The notes beneath the pieces are model-generated. The model saw nothing but the letters and a program-made list of their open reading frames with translations, ran no database searches and was not told the origin of the DNA. 64,000 nt of DNA, taken from assembly GCA_038065355.1 (NCBI GenBank), contig JBBTRC010000005.1, positions 30,530-94,529 of the forward strand, in the 5' to 3' direction. Both the position numbers and the translations under genes were made by a program. This DNA comes from Patescibacteria group bacterium. GTDB lineage: Bacteria > Patescibacteriota > Minisyncoccia > Phycocordibacterales > UBA918. Positions 23,101 to 56,432 of the stretch are shown one piece after another; position 1 is the first letter of the stretch, and every line of letters starts with the position of its first letter.

Positions 23101-26100
23101 CCTCGATTGACCGATAGGTTGCCATCAACATCAAGCGCGGTAAGCGGTGTCCAGGCACCACTACCGGTCGTCGTACCAAACGTGAGATTCGCGAAGGTGG
23201 TGTTAACGGCTCCAGTGTTGTCAATTGTTTCTGATGTGCTGGTGGCCGAAAACACAACCGTCGATCCGGTTAGTGTCGTCGTGGCGTTGTTGTCCCATGA
23301 ACCATTCACCTCGTGTGTGTACGAACCGGCGACAAAGATACCGTTATTTTCAAAATCATGAGTGACAAAGCGGCCGCCCGGTGTGTAGTACGTATCGGCA
23401 AGGATGTGGAGTTCCACATCTGTACAACCGCCACCGGCACACAATGAAAGGGTTGACCCGGAGAGGTCAAAGAAAACATCTTCGGTGTTTGTGAAATCGT
23501 AGAGACCGATATCGGCATCTGTGAGCGGAGTGGTAGTAGCATCGTTTGAACCGAGCGTGAGATGCCGCTCGTAGAGTACCATGCCATCAATATCACCTTG
23601 ACCATCGTACCTGGTCACGCCAACCGCCTCGTTTGCATCTGGCGCCGAGGTGACAAACACACTAACCACGTCGCCGGGGAAAGCGGTGACATTACTTATG
23701 CTCCAAGTGCCGCCGCCGACAGTGCCGGTCTTACCTGTCTGCAACACACCATTGACTGCAACCGCTACTGTGCCGCTCGTCACCGCTGTCGCTTGGTCAT
23801 ACTCGGCGATGGTGCCTGAAACGGTAATACCGCCCGCCCAGTCAATTTTCCAATCTGAAATGCTGGGGCAATTGCCTGACCCGTCGCAAGCAAGTTCAGC
23901 GTACGGACGAATGACATTGTAAGTATTGGTATTGAGATTACTAAGATCAAACGGCCCGGTTGTGGTACCGGCGACGTTACCCGGGAGATCTGCGTCCGGA
24001 ATAAAAGCCCAACTACCAGTCGCGGTGTAGTACTCTAGATGGTAACTGGCTACACTCGTACCTGGCGTGGCGTCATTCCACGAAAATGAGTCCCAGTAGG
24101 GGCCAGTCCCATCATTGAAATCTAGAGCCGGACTCACTACCGTCGTACCCTCACGACCGGGGTTGCGCGGAGCGAGAGAATAAGGATGGCCGAAAGGCGA
24201 AGTGTCAACTGACGCGTTTGTTTCAAGAGCTGAGAGGCTTGACCAGGTCGTGCCGTTCCAGGTGCTCGCTTGGTACGTATCAGATGGATCGTCAAAGAAG
24301 ACGCCGAGAATGGTGTTGTCGCCCGCTCGCGCCAACTGCAAAGTTGCGTTGTCACCGAGCGTGTCAACATTGCTGATCGACGACCAGGTGCTGGCGTTGT
24401 AAGTGAAGTAGCCAACTGCCGTAGTCGTACTGATGGCAGTCATGATGTAGCCGTTTCTGCCAGTGGTGTCTTCATACACGCAATCAAAACCCGGGTCTGT
24501 TTTGGCATTTCCATTGGCATCAGTCACTAACTCGGTTTGTCCGGCCCACGCCGAACCCGTCCAACGTACCACCCCCGCCGCCGTATCTTCATCCTGGTAA
24601 CAAAGAACCATCGCGTCACTGCCCACATCCCTCGACAACCGGGCCCACTCAAGATCATCACCAATGGCTTCTGTGGCGGCGGTCCCCCAAGTCGTTCCGT
24701 TCCAACTGTTCCAACGAAAACGAGCCGGATTGCCGTCTGAGGTCACAATGAGCGCTTGACCGCCGCTCTCTTCATACATAACCGCCATACCCTCATGAGC
24801 AGTGTCAACGATACTTCCCTGCGTCGTGGCATTACCCCAGCTACTGCCGCTCCAGACTTGAGCCTCATACTGGTTGCCAGCAGCATCCCGGGCCAGGAAG
24901 ACTATTTCGTCCGAAGTTGGGTCGGCCGCCAGCTGTAACCATTCACAATTGCTGGTGCTGTTGAGGTTAATCGTGCCACCGCTCGTCCATCCGGACCCGT
25001 TCCATATATAGTAGCTTGGGTCTGCGTCACCGTCACAGTACGCTACCAGGGCATCACCAGAGTTCGTTTCGTAGGCGATGTCAAAACCTTGCGCATTTAT
25101 GTTGCCGACGTTAGTTGTTAGTTCAAGCAAGTTAGCCCATTCGCCCGTCGCAAAAACTTGCACGTTCACGTCGGCGTCAGACCCGGCAGTGGCGGCCACA
25201 TATTCTTCCCTGGTGGCGCCTGCCTCTACCACTACCCTGCGGAGAGGCGCGCCGATATCAAGAAGGGTGCCTTCACTGCCCCAAAGAGAGCCGTCCCATT
25301 GCCGATAACGAGGCTGTGTCTCCGTACCCTCTCCATATACCAACATCGCCTCAGTGGCTGTGGTTGCCACCGTCACGGTATCGTTCGAAAGCGCAATAGT
25401 TCCTGAGAGAATATTAGAATCAAATTGCTCTTCTGTAGTTTGAAACCAGGTCGAAACGTCCGTGCCCGGTACCATAGTAAAACTTCTCGCTTCAGTCCAA
25501 AATGAGTAGGCATCGTCACCAGTCGTGTCTTTGGCCCGTACCCGCCACCAGTACGTTGTCGAGCCTGATAGTGCGTCTGCCGGCTGAATCGTAAATTGAA
25601 TCGTCTCGCCAGAATTAAATGGATCGGTATCCAGACCGGTGTCGATATTGGTAAATCCAGCAGCCGTGTCGGAGGTCCGGGTGGTCGAGGAAGTAAAATC
25701 GGGCGTAAGCGACCATTGAAGTTGATACGTGAGACTATCGTTTTGCGGATCGGCGGTTGTAAATTCAAATGTTGGTGTGGTGGTACCCACTTGCTCGTTG
25801 GCAAATAATTTTGTAATAGTCGGTGTCTCAACTCGATAGCCCCAATTGATGGTCCAGTCCTGGAGCGAAGGCGAACCACCTGAATTTGTAAACGTGGCGA
25901 CGATCCGCAGTACGTTGTACGTGTCGGTATCGAGCGTCAAGAGAGAGACCGGTGAGGTGTCAAAGCCGCTGCTGTTGCCGGTGAGCGCTGAATCCGGCAC
26001 CAACGACCAGGTATCGTCGGTATCCAAATATTCAATCTGGTATTTAATATCGCCGGCGGTTTCGGTGTCAGAGAAAACAAAGTTGTCCCAGGCGGTGCCC

Positions 26101-29100
26101 AAAGCACCATCGTCAAAATCAATCGCTCCACTTATCATGGTGCCAGTCGTCGAACCACTTATGAGAGATACTTGGTCACTGCCTGTCTGTACGCCGCTTA
26201 AGGCATTGGTATCAAATTGTTCGTCTTCGGTTTGAAACCAAGCGGAAGCGGTCAGTGCAGTATCGACGGTTACACTGTAAGTGGTTGACCAATTGCCCCA
26301 GTCTGCGGACCCATCGGGATCTTCAGCGCGCACTCGCCAGTAATAGGTGGTTCCATTTGTGAGTGACGAAGGAGGAATGACTCTGATTAAGTTACCTTGA
26401 ATAAACGGCGCCTTATCGGAGATGAGCACCTGGTTTTCGAAATAGTCATCTTCACTGGCGTTTTGTGTGTCGAGGTCATGAACTGGTGAAGAAAAATCGT
26501 AGTTGTTATCAATTTCAATTTCGTAATGTATCTTGTCACTCTCTGCATCAGTGGCGTAAAACTCAAACCACGGTGTGGTCGATGCGGTTTTTTCATTGTC
26601 AAACGGTGTTTCGAGCACCAGAGTACCTGGCGCGTCATTCGTGTAAATCTGCGGATAGTTTCCGTACGTTGAAAATGCCGAACCATCTCCTTCAACCAAC
26701 CGGAAACAATAATTGGTGCCAGGAACGGCGTTGTTATGTTGAAGTACGAAGTCCCATTCACCAAAGTCGCCGACTGTTATTTGGTTGGGTGTACTGGATG
26801 CGTAGCCATTTTCCTCGTATGTTTCTGCTACGGTGGACGATGCAAGAAGTTGCGACGTGAGCGTTCCGCTATCAGACACGCTGGTGTTGTTGTACCCACG
26901 CCAGAGTGCCGTCGTAGAAGAAATATCCCCCACATCACGCCAACCGCCAGCGGCGCTACAGGTAGCCGCCGCGGCGTATTGCAGTGTAAACGTCGAACCA
27001 GCACTTGAAGTCGCGTTTGAAACACTGGTGTTTAGACGCAAGCGAATACGCTCACCTTCCTTGACTGGCGTTGAAACAGCCGTTACTGGTTCGTTTTCAG
27101 CTAGATCACTAGCCCCACTTGGCCAAGGATCAGTGGGAACTTGCGCATTGTTGTTTACATACCACCGAAATGCTTGTTCTGTATAGACAGGATCAGTACC
27201 TTGCCGCTTACCAAAGACCACAGTGAGATAAGGCGGCAAGTGGCTGACTGTACTGAAGCTGTTGACATTAACCGAGTGCGTGTGGGCACCGCTCGCACCG
27301 GCGGTACCGCCTGGCTGGTTTCCGGGTGAATTGGCGCTCGGAGCACTCGAAGTGATACCGGTCACATCTGCATTTGTGTGGGTGTTTTGTCCTCCAGTTG
27401 CACTGAAGGTTGTTGATGCTTTGAGGAAACGCTGGTTGAACGGATCGCCGGAAAGCGAAGATATATCCAGCCAGCTGCCATCAACTTCTTCAGTCCACAT
27501 AGCGATGAGTCCGTTTGGCGGTGTGGTCGTCGCGTCGAGTTTACCGAGAATGACCTCGATGTAGCGCGGTTCGGTACTCGTTGAAGCTGTCGAACCGCCA
27601 ACTGTGTGCGTGTGCGTACTAAGCGCACCGGTTGCGGCGCCGCCACCACGGTTGCGGGTGCCAGTGCCGCCAGCTGTGCCGGTTGTACCACTAATTGCGT
27701 GCGTGTGAGTATTCCCGCCGCCGGTTGTACCGGGAGTATTTCCACCGTAGATGTAGTAACCGTCCTGTGCGCTGTATCTTGTCCAGCCGCTCGGAACGGT
27801 TGCGTCAAAGATACCAATGGCGCCGGTCGGAATGTCGGTCGGTTCACCAGCCGCGTCGGTGTACTGAATGACGCGCAACTCGCGATACGCCGGCAAGTTG
27901 GACGCGCTCGCGATAGTCGGCGAGTAGGTATGCGTATGAGCGACCGGAGCAATTGTGCCGGAACCGGATTCGGTGCTCGCAAGCGTGGTGGCCAAAACCG
28001 AGCCCACCGCCGTGTGCGTGTGCGTTGTCGCTCCGCCAGTCGTATTGTAGGTGGAGCTACCGTAGGCGAAGCGCTGGTAAAAAGTCCCAGACCCGCAAGA
28101 AAGACACGTCCAGCCAGTTGGAATCGCCGAACCGTTATCCCAAAATAGGATCATGTTGCCGACGGCATCGGAAGCAATTTGCCACTGCCGGTGCTCTAGG
28201 AACGAAGCGGCGGTCGGCTCCGCTGAAGTCGCTGTTGATGTTCCGCTGACAACAGTCGGTGACTGATTATCGTTTATGAGTTCGGCTGGTCCGAGGTTGT
28301 AAAGATAAGGGGACAAGTCGGGTGCATCAAAATCATACGAGACCGTTTCAGCACCCGCACCGAGAATCGAAATGTCCCAGGTCAGTATTTTTTCGTTGCC
28401 GGTTTGCGTGATGGTCGCATCGGTGTTAAATACGTCAAACTCTGCCGGAATACGTTCGGTCAGTGTACCGGTAAAAGAGCGGTTCGTTTCCACCGTGAGG
28501 TTCATCGGGTAAGGAGCGGGTGGGTAAATGCGAGTTGGACCATCGCGCAAAATTGCCAGTGGTTGATCATCAGCCACTAAAAATGTATCGGAAGTGAAGG
28601 CTAGTACATTGCCGTTTTCGTCGAGACGTTCCAAGTACAATTCGTAGGTGCCGGGAAGCGTGGTCGGTACTGCGGCACTGAAGTCAGGCACGTCTATCAC
28701 GTTGTTACCGTCACAGAAACCAGACTCGGTTACGGCAGGAACGGTAATGATGCCGGCCGGATCAGTCACGAACAAGTTGAAACTAGCTTGGCAGATAGTG
28801 TGTCCGTTTGGTGAGAGTGCTCCGATAGAGATCTCTGCTGTCTCGCCGGTTTGATACTCGCTTTGACTTGGGTTCATGCTTAAAATTCCCCACGCAAAGC
28901 TAAAGGTGTCGGTAAACACTACGCCGCCCTCATTCAGTGAGAGTTCGACTGCGTAGTTGCCTGGGCGAAGTTTTGCCAGATCCTCGTCTTCAAATTCAAC
29001 AGTGATGAGTCCCTCTTTTGTGGTAGTGATGCGAGGAGAAATACCAATCGGACCTTCGCCCTGGTGTCTAACAAGCACCGACTCTACCGTGACCACGTTG

Positions 29101-30817: not shown

Positions 30818-32356
30818 TTACTTCAAAATTGACTTTACGTCATTAATTTCTTTTTCGATCAAGGTTTCCGAAACTTCAAGCGCTTGAGCTAGACCTTCCA
30901 CTGCCTGCTTTTCATTCTTGGAAAGTCGTTTGCGTTTGGTAATAGTGTTCACTTGGTCGTAAATTTCGTCACGAAGCGCCGAAAATATTTTTTCCATTTG
31001 ATCTTGTATTTCTCTTGTCTCCCGACGAAGTTTTTCTTCTTTTTCCCTCAGCTGTTTATGCTCGTACCAGTAGTACACGATTTGAAGTAGAATTATAACA
31101 ATCAAGAACGCGATGAAGAGGTTCGTTGGAGTAAGAAAGTCGAACAACGACACCTCCTCCACCACTTCAACGGGCTTTACCCAGCCAGCCGTTATGAGTA
31201 CGGCGGTACTGCCTTCCCGCACGTTGCCGGCTTTGTCGGTCGCCACTACCTTTACGGTGTAGGTGCCATCTTCAAGTTCCTTCAGCAAATACCCAAGTCG
31301 TGCCTCATCAGGAGTGATGTGAATTGGCTCTTTATTGGCCACCGTCATATCGTAGTACTCGATACCGGAGGTAAGATCCTTCGCCTCAAAGACTATAAGT
31401 GGGAACGAGTTTGGTGTGGTACCCGCGCGTACGCTGATAGCAAACGGTTGCGGCGGCTGTGTGTCGATTTGCAACTTGCGGTTCGTGACCGCGCCCCAGC
31501 CAACTTGGTTTTGGAAGTTTACGCTCACGTACTGAACGCCCTCTTTTAGCAACTCACTGGACACCGCAAATTCTTCAACCGGCGGATCGAGGACTGCATC
31601 TTCATTCTCTTCAGGTTTGTTGTCACTGTCGCTCGCAATCTCGACCGCAACCGCCGTTATATCGAATGGGAGTGTCCAGGTGAAGACTCCCTCGGTTTTG
31701 TTGTACCACACGTCTGGATCAAGGAAAGTCTGTGAGCCAACTTCCGGAGGCCGCGGAGGATCGCCAAAGATAATGGCTTCGTCCTCGTCAGTGTTTGGCG
31801 TTGGTGTGACCGAAGAAGGAGGCGGGGTTGGTGTCGGAGTTGGTGTCGCCGCACCAGTGATTGTATAGTTTCCGCCGGTTGAGTTCTTATACACATCGGT
31901 GCCGCGTCCATCAGCGGCCAAGACAGAGGCGTTACTGAAAGTGACACTGCCGGCTCCCTGTGCCACCGTACGGAAGGTGATCGTCAGAATATTTGATGTA
32001 TTGCTAAATGGAGTCGGACTACCGCCGCCGAAGCTCACCGTACCATTGGCGTTTGAAAAAGTTGGTTCGGTCGTCCAGAGCGAAAACACCGACCCGTCCT
32101 TACTCACACTCACTACCGAAAGCGCTTTAGGATCAAATTTTAGCGTCGACTCAACCGCGTTTACGTTGTCCCCATTGGGGGCAACCTTGACTACGGTGGT
32201 GAAAGTCTGGCCTGCGGCGTACGTCCCGGTACTCGGCGTGAGGGACAAGTCGGCAGCAAACACACTCGTATGAAAGGCAAAGAAAAACAAACCGACCACT
32301 AACGGGAGTAAGTGCAGTTTGAATTTCTGTAATAATGTTGGAAGGGACTGTGACAT
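30818..32356 (-). CDS. Scaffoldin-like membrane protein, paralog of 479..2233. Signal peptide, cohesin-like domain, Pro/Thr linker, Ig-like region, TM, cytoplasmic coiled-coil tail.
   Basis: 512-aa ORF. VFSLWTTEPTFSNANGTVSFGGGSPTPFSNTSNILTITFRT aligns with the 479..2233 cohesin-like motif. TM FIAFLIVIILLQIVYYW followed by EKEEKLRRETREIQDQ... heptads. Confidence 0.75.
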   Translation of the reverse strand: MSQSLPTLLQKFKLHLLPLVVGLFFFAFHTSVFAADLSLTPSTGTYAAGQTFTTVVKVAPNGDNVNAVESTLKFDPKALSVVSVSKDGSVFSLWTTEPTFSNANGTVSFGGGSPTPFSNTSNILTITFRTVAQGAGSVTFSNASVLAADGRGTDVYKNSTGGNYTITGAATPTPTPTPPPSSVTPTPNTDEDEAIIFGDPPRPPEVGSQTFLDPDVWYNKTEGVFTWTLPFDITAVAVEIASDSDNKPEENEDAVLDPPVEEFAVSSELLKEGVQYVSVNFQNQVGWGAVTNRKLQIDTQPPQPFAISVRAGTTPNSFPLIVFEAKDLTSGIEYYDMTVANKEPIHITPDEARLGYLLKELEDGTYTVKVVATDKAGNVREGSTAVLITAGWVKPVEVVEEVSLFDFLTPTNLFIAFLIVIILLQIVYYWYEHKQLREKEEKLRRETREIQDQMEKIFSALRDEIYDQVNTITKRKRLSKNEKQAVEGLAQALEVSETLIEKEINDVKSILK

Positions 32357-32918: not shown

Positions 32919-34814
32919 TTAACCCGTCCAATTGAAGAGCATGATTGAAAAGTCGGTGAGGTTTACACGACCGTCGCGGTTGATATCGGCCGGTGGATCT
33001 GAATCTCCGCCGCTCCCATTCCACCAAAACAGCAAAATTGAAAAGTCGGTGAGGTTTACACGACCGTCGCGGTTGAGGTCTGCGTTCAGTGGTACCGACG
33101 CTGACTGTCCGACGCCATAGAACGTGTAGTTCGAAAAGTTCGTACTCACGCCGCTGGTTTGTACAGATTTTGCTCGTACCTGGTAGGTACCGACGGAAAA
33201 GCCGTCTGTGTTTGTGGTGGCTGTCCACTTGCCGCTAGCATCCGCTGTCGCAGTGATAGCTGTACCACCAGTATTCACTTTGCCATTCTCGAGGGTGATG
33301 TTGGAATTTGGAAGACCGTACCCAGAAAACGTGACTGTTTGCCCAGGTGAGACTGGATTCGGACTTACTTTTATTGAGGGTGCTACGTTCACATTTGAAA
33401 GCGTGGAGGTTCGGGCACCAGTGACTGTAAATGATGTACTAAATGTCGAAGAACGGACAGCGTCAGGACCCTCGGCGTAGACGCCGAAGGTGTAGGCACC
33501 ACGGGCTATTTCGTCGAGTGTGAGAGAATACACGCCGGTGCTATTACTTCTTACCGTTTGTGCAACCTTGCCATCAACTAAAGTGGTAACGGTGCTGTTT
33601 GGGTAGGCATGTCCGGAAATGATGACTCGGCCGTCACCGCTTTGGTATGGTGCATCAGTTGATTCAAAACCGCCTCCAGCCGTATCGCCATCGTCTCCAC
33701 CCGAACCTCCTCCGCCACCACCACCCGAACCACCCGAACCCTCATCTTCACCCTCTTCCGGTTCTTCGCCGTCCGAACCGCCCGTGCTGCCGCCGGCACC
33801 GCTACCGGTTCCCGAGCCTTCATTTCCCGAACCGGTACCACTACCCTCAACGTCTCCTTCGGTATTTGGATCGCCGGTTGGAGTATCGTTGACTGTAAAC
33901 GTAATTATGAAGTCGTCGGTGTTAAAGTTGCCTTCGTCGTCGATACAGCGCACATAGAAAGTCTCTGTGGTGTTCGGTGTCACCGATACCACCTGTGAAT
34001 GGAAAACGAAGCCGGTGTTCGCGAAAACTAGCGACATTGAATTGAAATCGGTACCAGCCACAGTATCGTACCGACAGACAGCCAATTCGTCAGTCTCAAG
34101 CGAGAGTTCGACGCTCAGCGTGGTACCACCAACCGTACTGGTCGGTGCTCCGTTAAAGCGGTATGGCGGCACGACCTCGGTAGTGTCTACGTTCGGCACC
34201 GACACCTTTTCGACAATCGCAATTAAGAAGCCGGCGCGGGCGACGAGACCACCGTCATAGATTTCCATACGCACCTCATGGGTGCCCACTGTAGCCGAGT
34301 TCACGATTGGCTCCACGTCGCCAGCGGTCGTAGTCGTGCCAGTCGAGGTGCTGTAAGTAACAGAAGCCGGTACTGCATTTGATGTGTGATTGCCAACTCG
34401 AAACTGAATACGCTCCCCATTGCTTAACCCCGAGTCCGGCGCTAGTGTGTACCGTAGTAAGCCAGGGGTTCCTGGAGTAATCTCCACTTGGTCTACGCCG
34501 GCGGCGGCTGTGGCCGCCGCCGGCCTCGGCGTGCCGTCCACATACATTTCAACATTTCTTATAGCAAAGGTGGAAGTGGCCAATATTTCAAACCCAGCTG
34601 GCGGAGTAATCTCGATGACGCCCCCCGGCGACACGTCCGTGTTGAGCCGAAAATCAAACGTGTGGTTGGATTGGAAATTAGGGCCGGAGTCACTAAGCGT
34701 GTCTTTGTACTCAAGAATATTAAGCGCCTCTACTCGTCCTGCAGTCAGTAAAGATAGTACTCCGAGTACGAGTACAAGTGCCAAAAACGTCCACGCTTTC
34801 TGTACGGCGCTCAT
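32919..34814 (-). CDS. Secreted dockerin-containing protein with Ig-like modules and a long Gly/Ser/Glu linker. Dockerin paralog of 4845..5978.
   Basis: 631-aa ORF. Signal peptide. Linker GSGTGSGNEGSGTGSGAGGSTGGSDGEEPEEGEDEGSGGSGGGGGGGSGG. C-terminal DLNRDGRVNLTDFSILLFWW...DINRDGRVNLTDFSIMLFNW. Confidence 0.75.
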   Translation of the reverse strand: MSAVQKAWTFLALVLVLGVLSLLTAGRVEALNILEYKDTLSDSGPNFQSNHTFDFRLNTDVSPGGVIEITPPAGFEILATSTFAIRNVEMYVDGTPRPAAATAAAGVDQVEITPGTPGLLRYTLAPDSGLSNGERIQFRVGNHTSNAVPASVTYSTSTGTTTTAGDVEPIVNSATVGTHEVRMEIYDGGLVARAGFLIAIVEKVSVPNVDTTEVVPPYRFNGAPTSTVGGTTLSVELSLETDELAVCRYDTVAGTDFNSMSLVFANTGFVFHSQVVSVTPNTTETFYVRCIDDEGNFNTDDFIITFTVNDTPTGDPNTEGDVEGSGTGSGNEGSGTGSGAGGSTGGSDGEEPEEGEDEGSGGSGGGGGGGSGGDDGDTAGGGFESTDAPYQSGDGRVIISGHAYPNSTVTTLVDGKVAQTVRSNSTGVYSLTLDEIARGAYTFGVYAEGPDAVRSSTFSTSFTVTGARTSTLSNVNVAPSIKVSPNPVSPGQTVTFSGYGLPNSNITLENGKVNTGGTAITATADASGKWTATTNTDGFSVGTYQVRAKSVQTSGVSTNFSNYTFYGVGQSASVPLNADLNRDGRVNLTDFSILLFWWNGSGGDSDPPADINRDGRVNLTDFSIMLFNWTG

Positions 34815-34858: not shown

Positions 34859-35260
34859 TTACACAGTTACGGCGTTTCTTTCTTCGCGCGAGCGCAAGTA
34901 GTCTAGCGTATAGTTCAACAAAATGAGCACCAGCAAAATAAACAAGATACTGGCAAGGACGTAGGTTGAGTAATTTTCACTTCCCCCAGAGCCAAGCCCG
35001 ATGTTGAGCTCGCGTTCTTTGAGCGCCGCCTCGCGAGCGTCAAGTTCCCGCTTTTGCGCGGTAAGCTCGGCCGTGAGCTGATTTAATTCGGTCGGCGCAA
35101 CACTGGCACCTACCCCAATGACACTTGCCACATAAGACTGCGTACCATGAGAAAGTACGGCAGTGCGGCTAAACAGAAGTCCGCTATCAAACACGAGTAC
35201 CAGCGCCAGCACGAGCGCGCCTACACGAAGCAATTTATGATAGTGCGTGTGTTCCATCAC
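34859..35260 (-). CDS. Small two-TM membrane protein with an intervening coiled-coil segment; unknown function.
   Basis: 133-aa ORF. Hydrophobic segments LRVGALVLALVLVF and LASILFILLVLILL. Heptad-like LTAELTAQKRELDAREAALKERE. Confidence 0.5.
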   Translation of the reverse strand: MMEHTHYHKLLRVGALVLALVLVFDSGLLFSRTAVLSHGTQSYVASVIGVGASVAPTELNQLTAELTAQKRELDAREAALKERELNIGLGSGGSENYSTYVLASILFILLVLILLNYTLDYLRSREERNAVTV

Positions 35261-35285
35261 ACATATATTGTACCAAAACTTGTAG

Positions 35286-36356
35286 TTAAGCGAACAAGGT
35301 AAGGAGAATAATGAGGAAAAACGCCGTCATAAAAAGCAGTGCGACCGTAAGAAAAAGCGTAGTCGGCGGTCCTGAACGGCGGCGGCGGTGAACTATTCTC
35401 GTGCTACCCTGCGTTAAATGAGCGAGTGTTCGGCTGATGTACATGCGTACAAAGATGAACGTCACGAGAAGCAGTACCGCGAGCACACCGAGAGCCGGAC
35501 CAATAATATGGAGGGGTAAAATCCAGAACGACACCGTGCTCGACATGGTCTTTTTGGCACCGACATCGCCATACGATGCGCTAAGGACAGCCTCATACCG
35601 GCCAAAACCGATGCTGTCGCCGGTCCATTGCGATGCGAATTCTTGTGACCGATGTGGAAACACCCCTCCTTGTGATTTGTTGAAATTTACAGTGTCAACT
35701 TTCTGCCCCAGCATGTTTTCAATTTCAATCAAGCCAATTGGTCGGACGAGTACGTTACCGACGTTTTCAATTTTTGCAGAAAAATCAACATTTTGCGAAC
35801 CGTAAAAGAATTTGTTGGTGGAAAACTGTCTAATACTTGCTTCTTCTACCACCTCGCCAGTGACGCGAATGCTGATGATATTGCCGACTTGGTAGCCGAC
35901 CGCCGCGCCGCTCTTTTCGATTTCTGGCGCATCCACAGAAATAAACACACTTCCAAAGTGACTGCCGGGGGACGCGTCTTCTGGTAGGTTGAGCTGAAAG
36001 GTAATTCTTTCACTGCCGCCGGCCGGAAGTGTAATAGACGAGACCGGCAACACGATCCAGTCGCTCAACTCCATTCCGGTCTCCTCTCCTTCGTCAGCAA
36101 ACACTGGCACACTACCGTCGCGAACGTCGGAAATGTTTCGGGTGAAGAGAAAGAAGGTTTGTTCGGAGTTGTTAAGGTTTTTTATGGTGACAGTGTGTTC
36201 TTCGTGTACTCCTGGATCCAGTGTCTCTTCAATCAGTGCCGGTTCGATGCTTACGCCAACCTGTTGAGCTGCAACCGACTGTGGCTGAAGAGTCCATACA
36301 AAAATAAAACAAAAAAAGACAAGCGTCGCTCGCCAACTAGAAAAATTTCCACTCAC
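35286..36356 (-). CDS. Tail-anchored cell-surface protein: signal peptide, beta-rich ectodomain, C-terminal TM segments with RRRRS basic stretch. Paralogous architecture to 5965..6924.
   Basis: 356-aa ORF. Signal FFCFIFVWTLQPQSVAA. C-terminal hydrophobic helices plus HRRRRSGPP. Confidence 0.65.
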   Translation of the reverse strand: MSGNFSSWRATLVFFCFIFVWTLQPQSVAAQQVGVSIEPALIEETLDPGVHEEHTVTIKNLNNSEQTFFLFTRNISDVRDGSVPVFADEGEETGMELSDWIVLPVSSITLPAGGSERITFQLNLPEDASPGSHFGSVFISVDAPEIEKSGAAVGYQVGNIISIRVTGEVVEEASIRQFSTNKFFYGSQNVDFSAKIENVGNVLVRPIGLIEIENMLGQKVDTVNFNKSQGGVFPHRSQEFASQWTGDSIGFGRYEAVLSASYGDVGAKKTMSSTVSFWILPLHIIGPALGVLAVLLLVTFIFVRMYISRTLAHLTQGSTRIVHRRRRSGPPTTLFLTVALLFMTAFFLIILLTLFA

Positions 36357-42731: not shown

Positions 42732-42803
42732 ATGATATATTTTATAATGTAATTGATATTTGTCAACATTAGCGAGGGGAATGTGTTCGGCGAGACCTCC
42801 CCC

Positions 42804-43442
42804 TTACTCCCCTGCCACAAGACGAGCGTAGACGACTCGATTGTGGCTGTAGCGGTCAGCGCTCCGGCTATATTGGCCGGAGCAAGTAATCAGGCGCAGG
42901 CCCGCATACTCAATATCACCATACACTTCAGCAGTCGGAAATGCCGACTGTGGATATACTTCTGACTTTTCTACCACAAACCGCGCTTCCCGACCGCCGC
43001 TTAATGTAATGAAAACTTCGTCACCCTCGGTCAGCTGACCAAGCGAGTAGAATACGGCCGGACCTCGATACGAATCCACGTGTCCCAGCACCACCGCCGG
43101 GCCGATGCTTCCCGGCACCGGACCATGCTGATACCAACCAACTGTGTCGAACATTTTTGGTACTTCAATTTCACCGTTGCTTCTAAGTCCGAGTGGTTCT
43201 TCAAACGCCGCCTCGACGCTAATTTTTGGAATACGAAGGCTGACTGGGAAAAGGTTCGGGTCAGTTTGGAGAGATGTGACCGTGCTACTAGCCGCAACCG
43301 GCAGTGGCGCCGGCACCGAGTTGGTTCCCCGCGGCCAAAAGTTGGCAATGAGAACCAGAGTCCCCATGACGGCAAAAACCACTCCGAGTTTGAAGTGGTC
43401 TTTGCGTAGATTTTTTGTAATGGTTTCTGCGAGATTAGGCAT
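42804..43442 (-). CDS. Sortase-family transpeptidase.
   Basis: 212-aa ORF. N-terminal TM. His-containing VVLGHVD and active-site LRLITCSG (TLxTC motif) with downstream Arg. Overlaps the upstream adhesin gene by 8 nt. Confidence 0.8.
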   Translation of the reverse strand: MPNLAETITKNLRKDHFKLGVVFAVMGTLVLIANFWPRGTNSVPAPLPVAASSTVTSLQTDPNLFPVSLRIPKISVEAAFEEPLGLRSNGEIEVPKMFDTVGWYQHGPVPGSIGPAVVLGHVDSYRGPAVFYSLGQLTEGDEVFITLSGGREARFVVEKSEVYPQSAFPTAEVYGDIEYAGLRLITCSGQYSRSADRYSHNRVVYARLVAGE

Positions 43443-46400
43443 TCTCTGTACGAGTTCGTACGGTGAGCGCGGCCAGCAAGATTACGAGAAGGGTAAACAC
43501 GGCGGCAGTGTCATCGCTGCCAGTACCGGTATTGGCTCCGCCAAAGGGCACGAGGCTAACTTGCTCGCCCAAGACCAGCGGAGTTGGTGCTGGCGTATCA
43601 TTTCCGTCATTATCACCACCCGAAGAGCCGTGTGAACGACGGCCACCTCCGCCACCGGATTGAGTGCCAGGAGTTTCTGGTTCTTCATCGATGATACTTT
43701 CATCAAAGAAGTTGTAGAAGTCGCATTGGTAGTCATCTGATTCTGATTCGCTTGAAATTTCGAAGAGACAGTATAGTTCGTCGCTATCAAGTTCGACTGA
43801 ACTTCCGTTTTGCTGTACGTCGTCTTGGAACCAGTGCTCAGGTAGTGCTTCGTACACTTTCCAGTCGCCAGCCGTGACTTCAAATGAGTAGTGGCCGGTT
43901 TGGTCGGTGGTAGTTGAGAGAACTTCTTCGCCATCGGTCGCATAGATTGTCCAACCGGCTACTGGAGTTGGGTCAGCGTCGGTTACCACTTCGTACTTAT
44001 AGCCATCAAGTAGGTAGGTTTCGTTCTCGGGTTCTGGTGCTGTGGTCACTTCGCAACCGACTTCGCCGGTCACATCAAGACGGAAAAGAAGTCCGGCTGG
44101 ATTTTGAACCTGGTTGGCACCATCGACACCTAAGTTGGTAACTTCAATGCGTAAGGTATTCTCGGCGTTCTCAAATAAAAACGGTAGAATGTCGACATCA
44201 TCCTTTTGCGTGTGGGCTTGGAAGTTGTTTTCGACATCAGAACGGTCAAGCGCCAAGCTGTCGTTTACATACACTCGGTAACTATTGTCGGCAGCCACAT
44301 CGAGCAAAGCAACCAGCGGATCGTTCACGGTGAATGTTTCAATGAAGTTGAAAGTCGTGTCAACTTCAGGATCTTCAATATATTCTGTCGGCCAGATCCA
44401 AGTGGCATCGGTAATATCGGCCGTCCAAGCTTCGTGTTCATTGGCGTGCACAGGGAAACCATTGGTTTCAAATACCAAGGTGGTTTCGTCGCTTACAATT
44501 TCGAGCGTACAGCGATCTACTTCCGGTTCTATTGGTACGTTCCAGGCGACGCAGTGATACGTTTGGTCGTCAGAAATACCGTCGACACGGTCAAAGTTGT
44601 CGTAGTTTTTGCCGTCGGTGTGACAATACAGTTCTGCCGTCACATCGTCGTCGTTGGTAAGATTGCCAGGACCGTAGGTGAACGGAATGTAGCCATCTTT
44701 CAATACTTCGCGCACCCATAGGTGACCAGCTTCGCCAAGCTGGGCAAGACTGATTTCTGTGGTTGTTCGGCCATCGGCGTTCGTCTCACCAAAGAGGTGC
44801 CAGTTGCCTGAGGCTGTGCCATAAAATGGCGAGTCGGGCAGATTGCTGTCGGGATTGGTGTTATCAGGCAACGCCCACTCAAATTCCCAGCCTGCTGCCA
44901 AACGGCAAGACTCGTGTTCAGCGACCCAGTCGGCGGCGGTTTCGTTCGTGATGTCGGGCGCGCCGTCGGCATTATTGTTCCAGTCTGGCAAATCTTCTTC
45001 ATCTGAACAGACGATCTTGTCAGCTACTAAATTAAAAGTTGGTGCTTCGGTAATATTGCGATTGACTACTTTGAATCGCTTGTGCGGTTCGTTAACGTTC
45101 ACTTGTTTCAAACCAGATACGTTCTCCCAGCCGTCTTGCAGAATTTCATTCACGCGATACTCACCGTACGGTACGTTGTTGAAGGTGACACAGCCGTTTT
45201 CACCAGTCACGCCAGTGTAGCCCTCGAAGAGGTCAACACCAATGACGCCGGTGTTGTCGTTGTACCAGTCGGGTTGCGGAGTCGTACCACTGCCGTCAAA
45301 AATACGGAAGTTGGCTGAGCCAGTCGTACTAGGAACAAAGCCCTGCATGTAGCGATGGAGGCTGTTGTACGGACCCCAGTTTGAGTTTGGATCGAAAGCT
45401 TGATTGATCTGAAGTTCAAGGATGTCGGTTTGGAAGCCGATGAAGCCGTCCATGTGAGTCGACCAACCGTCTTCAGTTGAGTATTCGGCATCCACCGTGT
45501 TGAGCGGAGTGCGGTTGTTATTCCACGTTCCTTGAGCTTTCGCGACATACGACTGCCCAGCTTGAAGAATGGTGGTCGTATCCAAGCCAGCCACAAGATT
45601 GGCTGGCACATTTATGTCTTCGAGTTTCTGGCCAAGCAGAGAGAGTTGCCAGCCTGAGAGTGGGTGTTGGTCAGGATCAAATTTACAAATGGTCACTTCG
45701 GCTTTGGGATGCGGTTCTTCACACACCCCTTCGGTAATCACAACCGCATCAAGGTCAAAACCGTCAGCAAGGGCGACGTGAAGCGCCGGGTTCGTGGTGT
45801 CGGTGAGGCGCACGTACTTGATCCAGGTAAGGCCGGTGCCTGCAAAGTCGATAAAACTAATGCGGTTAGGGGCTGGGTTGTTCGCAACACCGGCTACAAA
45901 CCAGGTCGTGCCGTCTTGACTCACTTCGACGGTGGCTTGTTCAACTGGGTACGTAGTGCCATTGGTCGCTTCGTAAATAGTAATGTCGGTGCCGGGTACT
46001 TCAAGCGCAAACTGCGTGAAGGCGAGCGTAATCGAGCCGCCGAAGCCAATCGAAAAGAAACCGGTGCCGCCGCCCGATACCCAGTCGGGCTGGCCAAGCG
46101 CCGCCGCTGGATCGATGCGTTCAGCTTGCGTAATTGGGTTGCCGTTTTTAAGGGTGCCTTGATTGGCTTCCAACACCGTCGCGGCGCCAATGTGTTCGCC
46201 TGCTTCACACTGTTCGACTTCGACTTCACGGTTTATGAATACACAGCGATATTCTGGTTCTTCAATCACTACGTCTGAAATCGAAAGAATTTGATTTTCT
46301 GGTATTTCGGTTATTTCTTCGTTAAAGAAAGTACAGATTTCAGCCTGTTCATACTCTTCGACATCGCCAAAGGTAGCCGAAACATCGACTTGGTACCAAT

Positions 46401-47478
46401 TGTCACGCACCTCTTCGATAACCTTCCAAGGGCCATTTTCCGGGTCAACCGCCACATCAGCACAGCCGAGCGGCCCGGTTTCTTTGATATAACTTTCGTC
46501 TCCGTTCGTGAAGGTAATGTGCCAGCCAGCGATTGGGTTTTCTTGTCCGTCATATTTACAGGCCGTGATTACTTCTTTGTCAGTGCCAATCGGTTCGCAA
46601 GCTGGATACTCTCCAACCGTGCCTTCCGGACATACTTCTACCGGCGGTACACAGTCTGGGAAAGTACCGGTGTACCCAAGTGGACATTCTTCAACTACTG
46701 GTTCACCGTCACAACCTCCTTGATTGTAGATTTGTTCCCCAGTTAGGCCGTTGCTGTAAAGGGTAGTCCAGTTTTTTCCGTCGTAATGCTCAATCGCACC
46801 ACCGTCGAAATTGTAGTCAAAGGGTGGAATGATATCTCCAAGGTCGTCCAAACCACCATCAATGTGGTCATCATGTCCGTTTGGCAGATTTACGATACTT
46901 TTTGCGTCAACAGTATTAACGATATAGGGGTTAGCATCCGCTTCCGTTGCATGACAGAGAGTGATGTTTGGATTTAGTTCTTCTGCCGGTGGTTCAGCCA
47001 CGTCGCCTGTGACTTGGTAGTTAGTGATGGAAACCTCGTCGTCTTCCGCATTGGCTGTCATTTCAAAATAAATTTGCAAATCAGCCGCTTGTGCTTCTAG
47101 AGGCAAATTGATCAAGATCGAGCCGGTTTCATCTGTGGCTGGATTTTGGCCTGTCTCGTTCTTACCATTCACGAAACCAAGTTCATTATCAACACTGACA
47201 GATCGCCAGCCATACGTGAATTTGTCTCCCGAATCAATCAACTCGGCATTGTAATCAAAAGACAGCACTAAGTTCGTATGGCTCGCCGCGTCCACTGAAC
47301 TCGAGTCATGTCGCGGTGAGGCTTGCGTTAAAGCCGCATTAGCTGGACCTAAAATACTGGTCGCCGCAAACGCGACAAAAAAAGACGCCGGGAAGGCGCT
47401 TAATACTAAAGACAGAACGGTCACAGCTGCAAAAAAGCGCGCAGTGAAGCGTTGCTTTGTGAAAGTAATGATATTCAT
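43435..47478 (-). CDS. Large secreted adhesin/pilin-like protein (~1347 aa from Met MNIITF; 1381 aa from the first ATG) with multiple CnaB/SpaA-type domains, a Gly-rich linker, and a C-terminal sorting-signal-like tail (motif region + hydrophobic helix + RTRTENA). Probable sortase substrate.
   Basis: Signal peptide FAAVTVLSLVLSAFPASFFVAFAA. Repeated G(E/D/P)(Y/W)(K/R)V.E....(G/N/H)W..D motifs. C-terminus ...SLVPFGGANTGTGSDDTAAVFTLLVILLAALTVRTRTENA lacks a canonical LPXTG. Confidence 0.7.
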   Translation of the reverse strand: MNIITFTKQRFTARFFAAVTVLSLVLSAFPASFFVAFAATSILGPANAALTQASPRHDSSSVDAASHTNLVLSFDYNAELIDSGDKFTYGWRSVSVDNELGFVNGKNETGQNPATDETGSILINLPLEAQAADLQIYFEMTANAEDDEVSITNYQVTGDVAEPPAEELNPNITLCHATEADANPYIVNTVDAKSIVNLPNGHDDHIDGGLDDLGDIIPPFDYNFDGGAIEHYDGKNWTTLYSNGLTGEQIYNQGGCDGEPVVEECPLGYTGTFPDCVPPVEVCPEGTVGEYPACEPIGTDKEVITACKYDGQENPIAGWHITFTNGDESYIKETGPLGCADVAVDPENGPWKVIEEVRDNWYQVDVSATFGDVEEYEQAEICTFFNEEITEIPENQILSISDVVIEEPEYRCVFINREVEVEQCEAGEHIGAATVLEANQGTLKNGNPITQAERIDPAAALGQPDWVSGGGTGFFSIGFGGSITLAFTQFALEVPGTDITIYEATNGTTYPVEQATVEVSQDGTTWFVAGVANNPAPNRISFIDFAGTGLTWIKYVRLTDTTNPALHVALADGFDLDAVVITEGVCEEPHPKAEVTICKFDPDQHPLSGWQLSLLGQKLEDINVPANLVAGLDTTTILQAGQSYVAKAQGTWNNNRTPLNTVDAEYSTEDGWSTHMDGFIGFQTDILELQINQAFDPNSNWGPYNSLHRYMQGFVPSTTGSANFRIFDGSGTTPQPDWYNDNTGVIGVDLFEGYTGVTGENGCVTFNNVPYGEYRVNEILQDGWENVSGLKQVNVNEPHKRFKVVNRNITEAPTFNLVADKIVCSDEEDLPDWNNNADGAPDITNETAADWVAEHESCRLAAGWEFEWALPDNTNPDSNLPDSPFYGTASGNWHLFGETNADGRTTTEISLAQLGEAGHLWVREVLKDGYIPFTYGPGNLTNDDDVTAELYCHTDGKNYDNFDRVDGISDDQTYHCVAWNVPIEPEVDRCTLEIVSDETTLVFETNGFPVHANEHEAWTADITDATWIWPTEYIEDPEVDTTFNFIETFTVNDPLVALLDVAADNSYRVYVNDSLALDRSDVENNFQAHTQKDDVDILPFLFENAENTLRIEVTNLGVDGANQVQNPAGLLFRLDVTGEVGCEVTTAPEPENETYLLDGYKYEVVTDADPTPVAGWTIYATDGEEVLSTTTDQTGHYSFEVTAGDWKVYEALPEHWFQDDVQQNGSSVELDSDELYCLFEISSESESDDYQCDFYNFFDESIIDEEPETPGTQSGGGGGRRSHGSSGGDNDGNDTPAPTPLVLGEQVSLVPFGGANTGTGSDDTAAVFTLLVILLAALTVRTRTENA

Positions 47479-47607
47479 AAATTTTACCCTGACTAACGAA
47501 GTAATCACACGGCAGAAAGAGATTTGTCGTGTTACGGTTACTTTACTCCTTTCTTTCAAAAAAGCAAGTCTAGAACACAAGAGTCCAAATTTGGCAATAG
47601 ACAGGGG

Positions 47608-48576
47608 CTAGAAGCTATGGCACGCGACTTGCTCACACCTGATTCCCAATTTGCGCATAATGGCCAGATTAGCACATATGCCAACCGGTACAGCGGTGGT
47701 AGTCGCAACACCAGCGAACGCTTCCTTCTCGAGCATGAGGAGACGCTCGTCAGCTCGGTGCATATGTTCATAAGCTCGCTCCAGAAACGCCCGCCGCTCT
47801 GCGCTTAGTTCTCGGGAAGAAAAATTGTCGTCAAGTAACCACGGAAACGCTCCGCAGGTATGAAAATTTTTATTGCCTTCGTCTGTGATGGTGCCGATGA
47901 GCCGGACGGTTTTTTGGCTACGCAAAAGTTCCAGGTCGCGAGGCAATAGTTCGGTCACGTTCGTCACCCAGCGGTTGCCAGAAATATCCTCAAACACGAT
48001 TGTCGTGGCCGGCGCGTCTGTCTCCTCGAGTACCCGACGACCAATAAGTCGCCCTTCCGCTGGCACCTGCCAGAGTTTTTGCTCCAGCTTTTCCTGTGAC
48101 ATGTAAATGGCCAGTTGTTGCCCGAGCGTGTGGTCGATGAGATAACCAAAACCAAACGCCTGCAAGAGCGCGCCGCCAGCAAAACTAAACATGACACTGC
48201 TCGAGACCAAAAGCCAGAGCGGGTGTCGGTAGCCTCGTTTGGTCTGCCGCAAGTTGTAGACTCCCATGAGCACCATGCCCGCCAACACCGCAAACCAGAG
48301 GTATGGCAAAAATTCTACAAAAAAAGTAGTGAAGTTTTCGTGGGTTGCCTCGTAGAGCGCATACTGGCGGTGGGTCACGACAAATAGCGTGACCGCGATC
48401 GCTACCGCCCCTATGAACACGGCGACCGCCCACAAGAACCAAATAAAACTATCCTGGCACCAGAAAAACCAGCGAGACTTGGGGCAGACCCGCTCCTCTT
48501 CGATGCGTTCCAAAACCGCCTGTTTGAGTTCTTGTGGTGGTTGCTCGGCCATATCACTATATACGTATTGCTTCAT
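47608..48576 (-). CDS. Putative anti-sigma factor: cytoplasmic N-terminus, single TM, large extracytoplasmic domain. Co-transcribed with the ECF sigma factor.
   Basis: Overlaps the sigma gene by 20 nt. N-terminal ~35 cytoplasmic residues then TM FIWFLWAVAVFIGAVAIAVTLFVV. Confidence 0.55.
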   Translation of the reverse strand: MKQYVYSDMAEQPPQELKQAVLERIEEERVCPKSRWFFWCQDSFIWFLWAVAVFIGAVAIAVTLFVVTHRQYALYEATHENFTTFFVEFLPYLWFAVLAGMVLMGVYNLRQTKRGYRHPLWLLVSSSVMFSFAGGALLQAFGFGYLIDHTLGQQLAIYMSQEKLEQKLWQVPAEGRLIGRRVLEETDAPATTIVFEDISGNRWVTNVTELLPRDLELLRSQKTVRLIGTITDEGNKNFHTCGAFPWLLDDNFSSRELSAERRAFLERAYEHMHRADERLLMLEKEAFAGVATTTAVPVGICANLAIMRKLGIRCEQVACHSF

Positions 48577-49141
48577 GATTTAATGCAGCTTTTAGCTGTT
48601 TTTTGCCCCTATGAATAAGTGTTCCTACCGAACCTATTGGTATCTGCAAAATATCTGATATTTCATCATACTCTTTGTGTTCAAAAAAGCGTAAGACGAG
48701 TACTTGCCGGTATTTGTCGTGGAGTGAAAAGAGCGCTTTGTTCAATTCTGCCACATTGATAGTTTTATCAAACTGCACATCAGCTCGAATATCCTTGCTC
48801 GCCAAAAGCGAAAAAATTTCATCGCTGTCTGACACCAGATGCCCCTCGGGTCGGACCGATGATTTCCGGTACCAGCTAACCGCCTCATTGTGGGCGATGC
48901 GGTAAATCCACGACGAAAATGAGAGCGTGGTATCAAAGCCGTTTAGGTTTTTATACACCTTGATAAATATTTCTTGCAAGACATCCCGCTGATCTTCCGC
49001 ATTGCGGATACCGAGCCGGGCGATGTAGCGTGTGAGTTTCGCTTCGTACCGATCAATCAACTCGCCGAACTGCTCCTTGTCTACCAAGGTTTTTTTAACC
49101 AATTCCTCATCACTCGGTGGCAAAGCGTAAGGTTGTTCCAT
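48557..49141 (-). CDS. ECF-type RNA polymerase sigma-70 factor.
   Basis: Region 2 (VLQEIFIKVYKNLNGFD...FSSWIYRIAHNEAVSWYRK) and region 4 (YRQVLVLRFFEHKEYDEISDILQIPIGSVGTLIHRGKKQL). Confidence 0.85.
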   Translation of the reverse strand: MEQPYALPPSDEELVKKTLVDKEQFGELIDRYEAKLTRYIARLGIRNAEDQRDVLQEIFIKVYKNLNGFDTTLSFSSWIYRIAHNEAVSWYRKSSVRPEGHLVSDSDEIFSLLASKDIRADVQFDKTINVAELNKALFSLHDKYRQVLVLRFFEHKEYDEISDILQIPIGSVGTLIHRGKKQLKAALNHEAIRI

Positions 49142-55784: not shown

Positions 55785-56432
55785 TTAAGCCACATGAGCA
55801 ATCTGTTTACGTCGTCGCCAAGTAATGTACAACCCGGCCAACACAATGATGATGCCGACTGGGTAATACACATACGATGAAGCAAAAATGTGTAGCCACG
55901 AAAGTTTGAAATTTTGCTGTGTTTCAAAGATATTGCCGAGCATAGCGAAGTATCCGGCTTTCGTCGGCATCTCGCCAAACACCAACATATACTCGCCACC
56001 GTTGTCGGGCGTGCTGATTTCGACTCGGTACGTACCGGCCTCGACTGGTACTTGTAGCGGCTCGCTCACCAAAAACTTCATTCCCATGACGCTATCACTC
56101 ACCTGGCGCCATTCTTCGATTGGCTGTTTCAAGCGAGCAATTTCCGTGACACCAGTGCCGTCTTCGTTGACTCGTACCGCGATCAGCGCAAATTCATACG
56201 GCTCTCCTTGGTCACGCTGTCGAATTTCAACCGTGAGTGTAAACGGCTCGGCTGAAGAAAGTTCCATCATTTCTGGGAAATCATCGAGCTGACCGAGGTA
56301 TTCTCGCGCGACGGAAGGTTCACCATTAAAAACTTCTACTGGTTCATACGGTTCGGACGGATCAATAGTGGTCGGATTGTAAGCGAGCGTGGGCGCTGCG
56401 AAAAAGATAAGCAGGAGGAGCGTTTTTTTCAT
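55785..56432 (-). CDS. Secreted protein with C-terminal TM anchor and RRRK tail; unknown function.
   Basis: Signal MKKTLLLLIFFAAPTLA. C-terminal VGIIIVLAGLYITW + RRRKQ. Confidence 0.5.
   Translation of the reverse strand: MKKTLLLLIFFAAPTLAYNPTTIDPSEPYEPVEVFNGEPSVAREYLGQLDDFPEMMELSSAEPFTLTVEIRQRDQGEPYEFALIAVRVNEDGTGVTEIARLKQPIEEWRQVSDSVMGMKFLVSEPLQVPVEAGTYRVEISTPDNGGEYMLVFGEMPTKAGYFAMLGNIFETQQNFKLSWLHIFASSYVYYPVGIIIVLAGLYITWRRRKQIAHVA

Follow-up and report, generated by a model that had tools for sequence, protein, structure and literature searches.

A class F sortase gene beside an adhesin gene with a predicted GANTG-type, non-LPXTG sorting signal in a Patescibacteria bacterium

Background

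The closest described counterparts of the locus analyzed here are pairs of class F sortase and substrate genes in Actinomycetota (Streptomyces, Actinoplanes, Amycolatopsis), for which NCBIfam holds a model of the enzyme (NF033748, class_F_sortase) and, in release 20, a model of the actinobacterial form of the substrate C-terminus (NF058571, GVDTG_CTERM, "GVDTG sorting domain-containing protein"). The physiological role of class F sortases is described as unknown, and the class as characterized in Cutibacterium (Propionibacterium) acnes only (reviews; 2026 mBio paper). More than half of the genomes of the candidate phyla radiation (CPR) encode a sortase (Méheust et al. 2019). A literature search on sortases with CPR or Saccharibacteria found no substrate information, and a search for "GVDTG" gave unrelated peptides only, with no paper found on a GVDTG-type signal; the "Pam pilus" of a 2026 preprint is a chaperone-usher-like system, not a sortase system. 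The present locus consists of a gene for a large adhesin-like surface protein and a gene for a class F sortase, located in a 64,000-nucleotide stretch of DNA (hereafter the window; positions 30,530 to 94,529 of contig JBBTRC010000005.1, assembly GCA_038065355.1) from a Patescibacteria (CPR) bacterium of Hainich groundwater well H41.

The window locus resembles the actinobacterial pairs in its sortase class (45-50% identity of the window enzyme to theirs), in having the substrate gene immediately upstream of the sortase gene, and in the build of the substrate tail, where the core P-x-G-[AG]-[PAV]-x-T-G-x-G leads into a hydrophobic segment and a terminal stretch with R/K. Unlike the actinobacterial tails, those of Patescibacteria carry a VLGEQV box, alternate between T and A ahead of the invariant G, and in many cases possess only a very short hydrophobic segment; the window passenger is a mosaic adhesin of 1347 aa, whereas actinobacterial passengers are mostly of 130-430 aa. 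The window sortase shares with C. acnes SrtF its nominal class and its character of a membrane-anchored Cys transpeptidase, but SrtF is reported to be a housekeeping enzyme that acts on LPXTG, whereas the window enzyme appears to be dedicated to a single neighbor that lacks LPXTG. Class E sortases and their LAXTG signals (Streptomyces SrtE1/SrtE2, Thermobifida SrtE) are similar in having Ala for Pro at motif position 2 and in predicted enzyme structure (Foldseek E about 4e-8 to T. fusca SrtE), but the class E hidden Markov model (HMM) gives the window sortase only 18.7 bits, the first residue of the present motif is Gly/Ala instead of Leu, and the conservation extends over about 11 residues. 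As in "choice-of-anchor" proteins, whose interchangeable C-terminal anchors have given several NCBIfam families their names, homologous passengers carry either a sortase tail or a PG_binding_1 domain; unlike in that idea, a covalent signal and a non-covalent domain take each other's place at a single syntenic locus, with the sortase gene coming or going accordingly. The window system is apparently the class F sortase/GVDTG-type pairing in a divergent Patescibacteria form and not a new kind of system; because NCBIfam already models the actinobacterial form, its motif is not wholly unprecedented. The reading put forward here, to which we give a probability of roughly 0.75, is that the adhesin would be anchored covalently to the cell wall by a dedicated class F sortase via a GANTG-type signal.

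The adhesin-sortase gene pair

Both genes are on the minus strand. The adhesin gene (43435..47478, 1347 aa, MEK7638681.1), a predicted sortase substrate whose product is named "hypothetical protein" by NCBI, is followed by the sortase gene (42804..43442, 212 aa), the start of which shares 8 nt with the adhesin stop: the junction reads GAG AAT GCC TAA in one frame and ATG CCT AAT in the other, an overlap of ATGCCTAA. The stop-to-stop open reading frame (ORF) of the adhesin (43435-47580) opens at TTG, the likelier start being the ATG at 47478, which gives 1347 aa; identical 1347-aa and 212-aa products have been called independently by gene callers on three other assemblies from this organism. 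The preliminary description of this DNA, made from its letters alone, had reported a 212-aa sortase overlapping the 3' end of the adhesin gene by 8 nt, and both ORFs lie where it placed them. Its suggestion that the two genes are coupled agrees with the overlap and also with the conservation of the tail near class F sortases and the joint gain or loss of tail and sortase gene documented below. Adhesin and sortase thus probably form a two-gene unit, a dedicated substrate/enzyme pair of the class F sortase type.

The C-terminal tail of the adhesin

The adhesin ends in ...VLGEQVSLVPFGGANTGTGSDDT-AAVFTLLVILLAALTV-RTRTENA and a stop codon, also written ...PLVLGEQVSLVPFGGANTGTGSDDT-AAVFTLLVILLAALTV-RTRTENA. 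From N- to C-terminus, all on the minus strand, the tail comprises a VLGEQV linker box (residues 1302-1307, 43558..43575); the core sorting motif P-F-G-G-A-N-T-G-T-G (residues 1311-1320, 43519..43548), which fits P-x-G-[AG]-[PAV]-x-[TA]-G-x-G; a hydrophobic stop-transfer segment of 16 residues, AAVFTLLVILLAALTV (residues 1325-1340, 43459..43506); and the basic tail RTRTENA (residues 1341-1347, 43438..43458). Within the core, G-A-N-T-G (residues 1314-1318, 43525..43539) occupies, by position and conservation, the place of LPXTG, and six residues separate it from the hydrophobic segment. The stretch LVPFGGANTGTGSDD covers the proposed recognition motif, and SLVPFGGANTGTGSDD is the segment of the tail that includes Thr1317 and Gly1318. 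Judged by sequence, G-A-N-T-G is a Leu-less relative of LPXTG in which a small residue replaces Leu; in the family as a whole it takes the form [AG]-[PAV]-x-[TA]-G, with an invariant P-x-G before it and x-G-G after it. The VLGEQV box is specific to Patescibacteria (V in 20, L in 18, G in 19 and Q in 20 of 25 Patescibacteria tails); it lies N-terminal of the sorting signal, and in adhesin homologues it also precedes the alternative PG_binding_1 domain.

No L[PA]xTG, xPxTG or NPxT[NGS] was found by a regular-expression (regex) scan of the whole adhesin, nor does the protein match Pfam Gram_pos_anchor. The absence of LPXTG, LAXTG and NPQTN that had been noted earlier was therefore borne out on re-inspection, as was the description of a large secreted protein with a tripartite tail (1347 aa, a signal-peptide-like N-terminus, and a motif followed by 16 hydrophobic residues and RTRTENA).

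Conservation of the tail beside class F sortases

Relatives of the window sortase number 573 in GTDB species genomes. The best 80 of these, all from Patescibacteria and Actinomycetota and 37-62% identical to the window enzyme, were kept as loci (labeled L...), 26 of them from Patescibacteria (including one record labeled Woesearchaeota) and 54 from Actinomycetota; the comparison as a whole extends to about 100 related loci. The pattern was first seen among ORFs with hydrophobic and basic ends: the upstream neighbor of the sortase repeatedly ends like the window adhesin (for example, VLGEQVSIVPAGAPNTGFGG... in L009, VLGDQVSVVPFGGADTGAGG... in L005, and VPVGGVETGDG... in Actinoplanes, L077). When 9011 ORF tails from the 80 loci and the window were scanned with an HMM of seven Patescibacteria tails, the ORF ending just before the sortase gene was matched in almost all loci from Patescibacteria (E 1e-24 to 1e-9) and in many from Actinomycetota; in the window, the HMM matched only the adhesin. 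With a strict regex applied to 77 usable loci, 25 of them from Patescibacteria, the upstream neighbor was positive in 52 (24 of the 25 in Patescibacteria), compared with 25 of 8393 other ORF tails taken as background (Fisher p=7e-97). Many of the regex-negative loci are visible near-misses, and several of the background matches are extra substrates in arrays.

Tails from Patescibacteria have the consensus P-x-V-L-G-E-Q-V-[ST]-x-V-P-x-G-[AG]-[PAV]-x-[TA]-G-x-G-G and those from Actinomycetota (Q-V-x-x-V)-P-x-G-[GA]-[VAP]-[ED]-T-G-[GT]-G, and the window PFGGANTGTG agrees with all conserved positions. Positions outside the regex are conserved as well, the G at +9 being present in 25/25 Patescibacteria and 24/28 Actinomycetota tails. 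Pentapeptides in the LPXTG-equivalent position of relatives include A-P-N-T-G, G-V-E-T-G and A-A-D-A-G. The passengers that precede these tails beside class F sortases vary, with LTD, SdrD_B, choice-of-anchor C (40.7 bits, cut-off 120), CHRD or no recognized domain; a common tail on diverse passengers is as expected of a modular sorting domain. In two Amycolatopsis loci (L072, L074), arrays of 4 to 6 small ORFs with VPxGAPQTGG lie upstream of the class F sortase gene, and some of these ORFs stop just past the GGG run, with no hydrophobic segment.

The actinobacterial model NF058571 (cut-off 29 bits) gives the Actinoplanes tail 34.6 bits and finds 18 of 28 actinobacterial tails at E<=1e-6 (about the cut-off). 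It finds 15 of 25 Patescibacteria tails at E<=1; the tail of the closest relative (L005, VPFGGADTGAGG) scores 25.5 bits, and that of the window 9.8 to 10.8 bits (E=0.46-0.99). When the tails from Patescibacteria were compared, profile to profile, with those from Actinomycetota, the match had 96.9% probability (E=1.7e-10); this test is not fully independent because the same regex had picked both sets. A search of a 5.8-billion-protein database with the profile of 25 tails returned nothing at E<=1e-3, the query being too short for a database of such size.

The preliminary description had left a choice between an unconventional pentapeptide signal and a plain C-terminal membrane anchor. In the second case, the sortase would act on canonical LPXTG-type proteins elsewhere in the genome, in line with the published LPXTG specificity of class F, and the 16-residue hydrophobic segment and basic residues could suffice on their own to hold the adhesin; the inspection also spans only 64 kb of the genome. 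The motif is conserved across two phyla far better than the hydrophobic segment is, however, and in several relatives the hydrophobic run, at 7 to 12 residues, could not span a bilayer. In the 64-kb window, no LPXTG-tailed ORF was found. Moreover, the sortase gene lies beside the tail far more often than by chance (p=7e-97, as above) and is lost exactly where a PG_binding_1 domain replaces the tail. Both the pattern of conservation and the joint loss of the sortase thus speak strongly against a plain anchor, which we consider very unlikely. The other option has held up, the tail being conserved beside class F sortases and co-varying with the sortase gene: cross-phylum conservation, joint gain or loss of sortase and tail, and the sub-threshold GVDTG_CTERM match together support the GANTG tail as a putative non-LPXTG sortase signal.

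The short hydrophobic runs were seen in the tails of L004, L007, L011, L012, L014 and L016 (for example, LEFFHVVPVALLRRKA).

Four other window proteins have hydrophobic and basic ends (2226-3284, 5965-6924, 34859-35326 and 55785-56432); their best E value with the tail HMM was 0.53, no LPXTG-type motif was found in them, and they are treated here as putative ordinary membrane anchors.

A shared VPFG had been pointed out between the adhesin and a giant ORF of 5531 aa (14109-30704, minus strand), which has an N-terminal hydrophobic segment and Thr/Gly-rich repeats. YWGIAVPFG is indeed present 20 residues from the end of the giant protein, so that VPFG(G) could be the recognized element and both proteins substrates, and P and G of this element are invariant in the tail family. 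The Phe position, however, is variable in the 25 Patescibacteria tails (V8, A6, L3, F2, E2); the giant protein ends 17 residues later, in ...VNSAPHQGQNVFTPVGP, that is ...YWGIAVPFGVNSAPHQGQNVFTPVGP, with neither a hydrophobic or basic segment nor [AG][PAV]x[TA]GxGG; and the tail HMM matches only the adhesin in the window. As the C-terminus of the giant protein lacks any hydrophobic or basic tail, the shared VPFG is ascribed to chance; the link was rejected, with only P and G conserved in the family, and a role of VPFG as the signal is extremely unlikely. The earlier idea of an unconventional sortase signal is thus supported in substance by these comparisons, with the motif corrected from VPFG to GANTG within the extended consensus.

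Exchange of C-terminal anchors among adhesin homologues

A search with the whole adhesin yielded 26 homologues, of which 11 have the tail and 12 to 14 have a C-terminal PG_binding_1 domain (PF01471). Homologues of the tail type end in VLG[ED]Q..VPxG[AG][AP]x[TA]GxGG, a short hydrophobic stretch and RR, while those of the PG_binding_1 type have a similar P-x-V-[LA]-G box and then CPFL..YMQIG...EVxKLQxFLN.... Both types occupy the same syntenic block, which consists of a RluA-like gene, an extracytoplasmic function (ECF) sigma factor gene, an anti-sigma factor gene, the adhesin gene, the sortase gene where present, and genes for CAP, an S24 peptidase, GH18 and UmuC. The sortase gene comes after the tail-type adhesin gene in the window and in five other loci (L012, L014, L015, L084, L085), with an overlap of 8 nt in L084 as in the window. 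In all three loci examined with a PG_binding_1-type adhesin (L087, L088, L089), the CAP gene is directly next and there is no sortase gene.

Sortase gene and tail are evidently present or absent together, which ties the sortase to the tail; and as the tail and its sortase are evidently interchangeable with a non-covalent peptidoglycan-binding domain, they would serve attachment to the wall. This natural swap argues more strongly than any other evidence for both the sortase/tail link and the wall as the destination. In L016, the second copy of the adhesin extends into masked N bases, and its tail is unreadable. In L086, downstream of the tail-type adhesin P0132, an ORF at the end of the contig (8260-8346) starts with MNRKLIMSIGMLVFMAAVVAGGTGAFFSD, which resembles a SipW-dependent (TasA/camelysin-type) signal peptide and not a sortase.

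The sortase

The window sortase matches Pfam Sortase (PF04203) over profile positions 1-125 of 125 (72.4 bits, cut-off 26.6, E=3.5e-20). By its HMM scores it is most probably a class F sortase: NF033748 gives it 164.7 bits (E=1.1e-48), 1.3 bits short of the curated cut-off of 166, and the next-best class, class E, 18.7 bits. A protein identical to it carries the NCBI name "class F sortase", as do named relatives. The Cys motif LRLITCSG (TLxTC-like) reported earlier is present. His121 (43080-43082) and Cys187 (42882-42884) are invariant among 21 sortase homologues and Arg197 (42852-42854) is conserved in at least 90% of them, all three being predicted to be catalytic. The catalytic domain (residues 69-209, 42816..43238) was delimited by homologue conservation and the predicted sortase fold, and is preceded by an N-terminal membrane anchor, LGVVFAVMGTLVLIANFW (residues 19-36, 43335..43388), within a helix predicted by AlphaFold2 at residues 4-35; all of these features are on the minus strand. 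The AlphaFold2 model (pLDDT 84.5) shows the N-terminal membrane helix, a disordered linker and an eight-stranded sortase beta-barrel. Foldseek matched it about equally to solved class C, E, A and D sortases (E about 1e-8, <=25% identity); with classes C, E and A scoring about equally, these matches do not resolve the class. A single-sequence search of the PDB with the sortase found nothing at E<=0.01, and a profile search gave weak class D and class E matches only; there was no class F structure among the PDB matches.

Class F sortases of Patescibacteria and Actinomycetota are 40-50% identical and share the substrate tail (for example, Saccharibacteria loci L008-L048 versus Actinomycetota loci L025-L083). 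Cultivated Saccharibacteria are episymbionts of Actinomycetota. Given this identity, the common tail and this way of life, horizontal transfer of the enzyme/substrate pair between Saccharibacteria and Actinomycetota is plausible.

Proposed mechanism

In the proposed mechanism, the adhesin would be exported via the Sec pathway by means of its N-terminal signal peptide and held in the membrane by the hydrophobic and basic parts of its C-terminus. The sortase (His121, Cys187, Arg197), itself anchored in the membrane, would recognize P1311-G1320 (P-F-G-G-A-N-T-G-T-G), and Cys187 would attack and cut between T1317 and G1318, giving a thioacyl intermediate; this position, GANT/G, is inferred by analogy with LPXT/G. 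The adhesin would then be passed to an amine of a peptidoglycan precursor and so be displayed covalently on the cell wall. The organism can be expected to have peptidoglycan, given that an M23 peptidase with a PG_binding_1 domain is encoded in the window.

Several points weigh against covalent anchoring through a GANTG-type signal. The C. acnes class F sortase, the sole class F enzyme studied biochemically (Di Girolamo et al. 2019), is reported in a review to recognize LPXTG, and an Actinoplanes mutant with a quadruple class F deletion is reported to show no phenotype (reviews; 2026 mBio paper). The window tail falls well below the GVDTG_CTERM threshold of 29 bits, and the regex and hhalign tests share selection criteria and so are not fully independent. 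With 64 kb of the genome inspected, a second sortase or other substrates may be encoded elsewhere. Behind one tail-type adhesin gene (P0132, L086) the contig ends after 350 nt, in which no sortase start is seen, a case that is either uninformative or an exception. At the presumed P1 position, roughly half of the tails from Patescibacteria have Ala in place of the Thr of the window tail. Classical sortases tolerate Ala at P1 poorly, so the cut may fall elsewhere in the motif; together with the short hydrophobic runs, also unlike classical signals, the Ala may reflect a different recognition or cleavage register.

These features bear on a broader generalization, that class F sortases across Actinomycetota and Patescibacteria use an extended Leu-less signal, P-x-G-[AG]-[PAV]-x-[TA]-G-x-G-G, with Thr at P1 and a full-length membrane span no longer strictly required in Patescibacteria. 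We offer this generalization tentatively, as the less probable state of affairs. If the relaxed P1 Thr and the shortened membrane segment are real, recognition or cleavage differs from the LPXT/G paradigm.

The sortase might instead be mainly a processing or shedding protease: once cut from its membrane anchor, the adhesin would pass into the medium or onto an acceptor other than peptidoglycan, for instance a lipid or a component of a surface layer. Patescibacteria envelopes are poorly characterized, and the T/A variation at the presumed P1 and the extended motif suggest non-classical chemistry. The exchange with a peptidoglycan-binding domain, on the other hand, suggests a wall-associated end state, and the characterized sortases are all transpeptidases (review), so that shedding is quite improbable.

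Domain architecture of the adhesin

The adhesin has a predicted Sec signal peptide (residues 1-38, 47365..47478, minus strand) that ends in AFA/A, the cleavage site following from the -3/-1 rule; its N-terminus reads MNIITFTKQRFTARFFAAVTVLSLVLSAFPASFFVAFA|A, that is MNIITFTKQRFTARFF-AAVTVLSLVLSAFPASFFVAFA|A. The core of this signal peptide, LSAFP[AV]xFFVAxA, is unusually conserved among the adhesin homologues (P0125-P0150, L012-L016) with either type of C-terminal anchor, and is reminiscent of specialized signal peptides such as the YSIRK type of Gram-positive surface proteins. The module motif G-x-[WY]-[KR]-V-x-E...[GN][WY] occurs four times (residues 349, 772, 918 and 1204). Pfam identifies a SpaA/prealbumin module (PF17802) at residues 745-801 (38.7 bits, cut-off 23.1) and an SdrD_B/CarboxypepD_reg module at residues 1165-1234 (SdrD_B at 1166-1234, 32.9 bits, cut-off 29.7), along with a weak, sub-threshold F5/8 type C match near residues 497-562. 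As Pfam backs only these two prealbumin/CnaB-type modules and most of the protein is matched by no family, the earlier statement that the adhesin is built from CnaB/SpaA-like modules is only partly true: the two modules and four motif copies bear it out, and the remainder of the protein does not.

SpaA/prealbumin and SdrD_B-like modules are typical of Gram-positive pilins, and the sortase might join copies of the adhesin, with or without further subunits, into a covalently linked pilus or fiber in the manner of class C enzymes, instead of or besides attaching it to the wall. The best Foldseek matches include pilus-specific class C sortases, and the Amycolatopsis loci carry arrays of small tail-bearing proteins. 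The window locus, however, has a single substrate gene; the adhesin lacks a YPKN-like pilin motif, and a sequence search for the pilin motif WxxxVxVYPK found no YPK anywhere in the adhesin; and Foldseek, as noted, ranks classes C, E and A about equally. That a non-covalent peptidoglycan-binding domain can take the syntenic place of tail and sortase points to wall attachment, and a pilus is improbable.

Regulation and genomic context

Directly upstream of the adhesin gene, on the same strand, are genes for a putative anti-sigma factor (47608-48576) and an ECF sigma factor (48557-49141). This gene order (sigma, anti-sigma, adhesin) recurs in L012, L014, L015, L016, L087 and L088. A conserved element, TGAAAGAAAGGAGTAAAGTAACCGTA (47533..47558, minus strand), precedes the adhesin start and is found in five related loci; it has the form TGAAAGAAAGGAGTA-N7-CGTA and resembles ECF promoters in its GAAA/GAAC-like -35 box, 16-nt spacing and CGT, from which its function is predicted. 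It occurs once in the window, a second copy having been sought upstream of the sigma factor gene and none found there. It is a reasonable inference that the neighboring ECF sigma factor controls the adhesin-sortase unit, and the sigma/anti-sigma pair and promoter-like element suggest signal-responsive control of adhesin display at the surface. The sole strong sigma-70-like promoter at the locus is in the 72-nt gap between the sortase and CAP genes (TTGACA-16-TAAAAT, 11/12 consensus matches, 42739-42766, minus strand), which fits the adhesin-sortase pair being a two-gene unit.

The downstream genes for CAP, S24 peptidase, GH18 and UmuC are syntenic with the adhesin locus in many relatives. Elsewhere in the window, and likewise on the minus strand, are genes (30818-32356, 4845-5978 and 32919-34814) for a cohesin-domain protein and two dockerin-domain proteins, with Big_13/Big_6 Ig-like domains, which hint at a cohesin-dockerin surface assembly beside the sortase route.

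Conclusion

Current annotation misses the tail described here, the protein being named "hypothetical" and scoring below the NF058571 threshold. Its recognition would permit a retrained, more sensitive sorting-domain model and would make it possible to predict, across whole genomes of episymbiotic CPR bacteria, which surface proteins are displayed covalently. The locus also provides a defined peptide/enzyme pair with which the specificity of class F could be addressed, and possibly a new ligation tool. The comparative evidence on the substrate specificity and role of this poorly understood sortase class in CPR bacteria is unusually clean and, if the broader generalization on an extended Leu-less signal is true, the locus and its natural anchor swap would offer a testable handle on how ultra-small CPR bacteria assemble the surface with which they contact their hosts.

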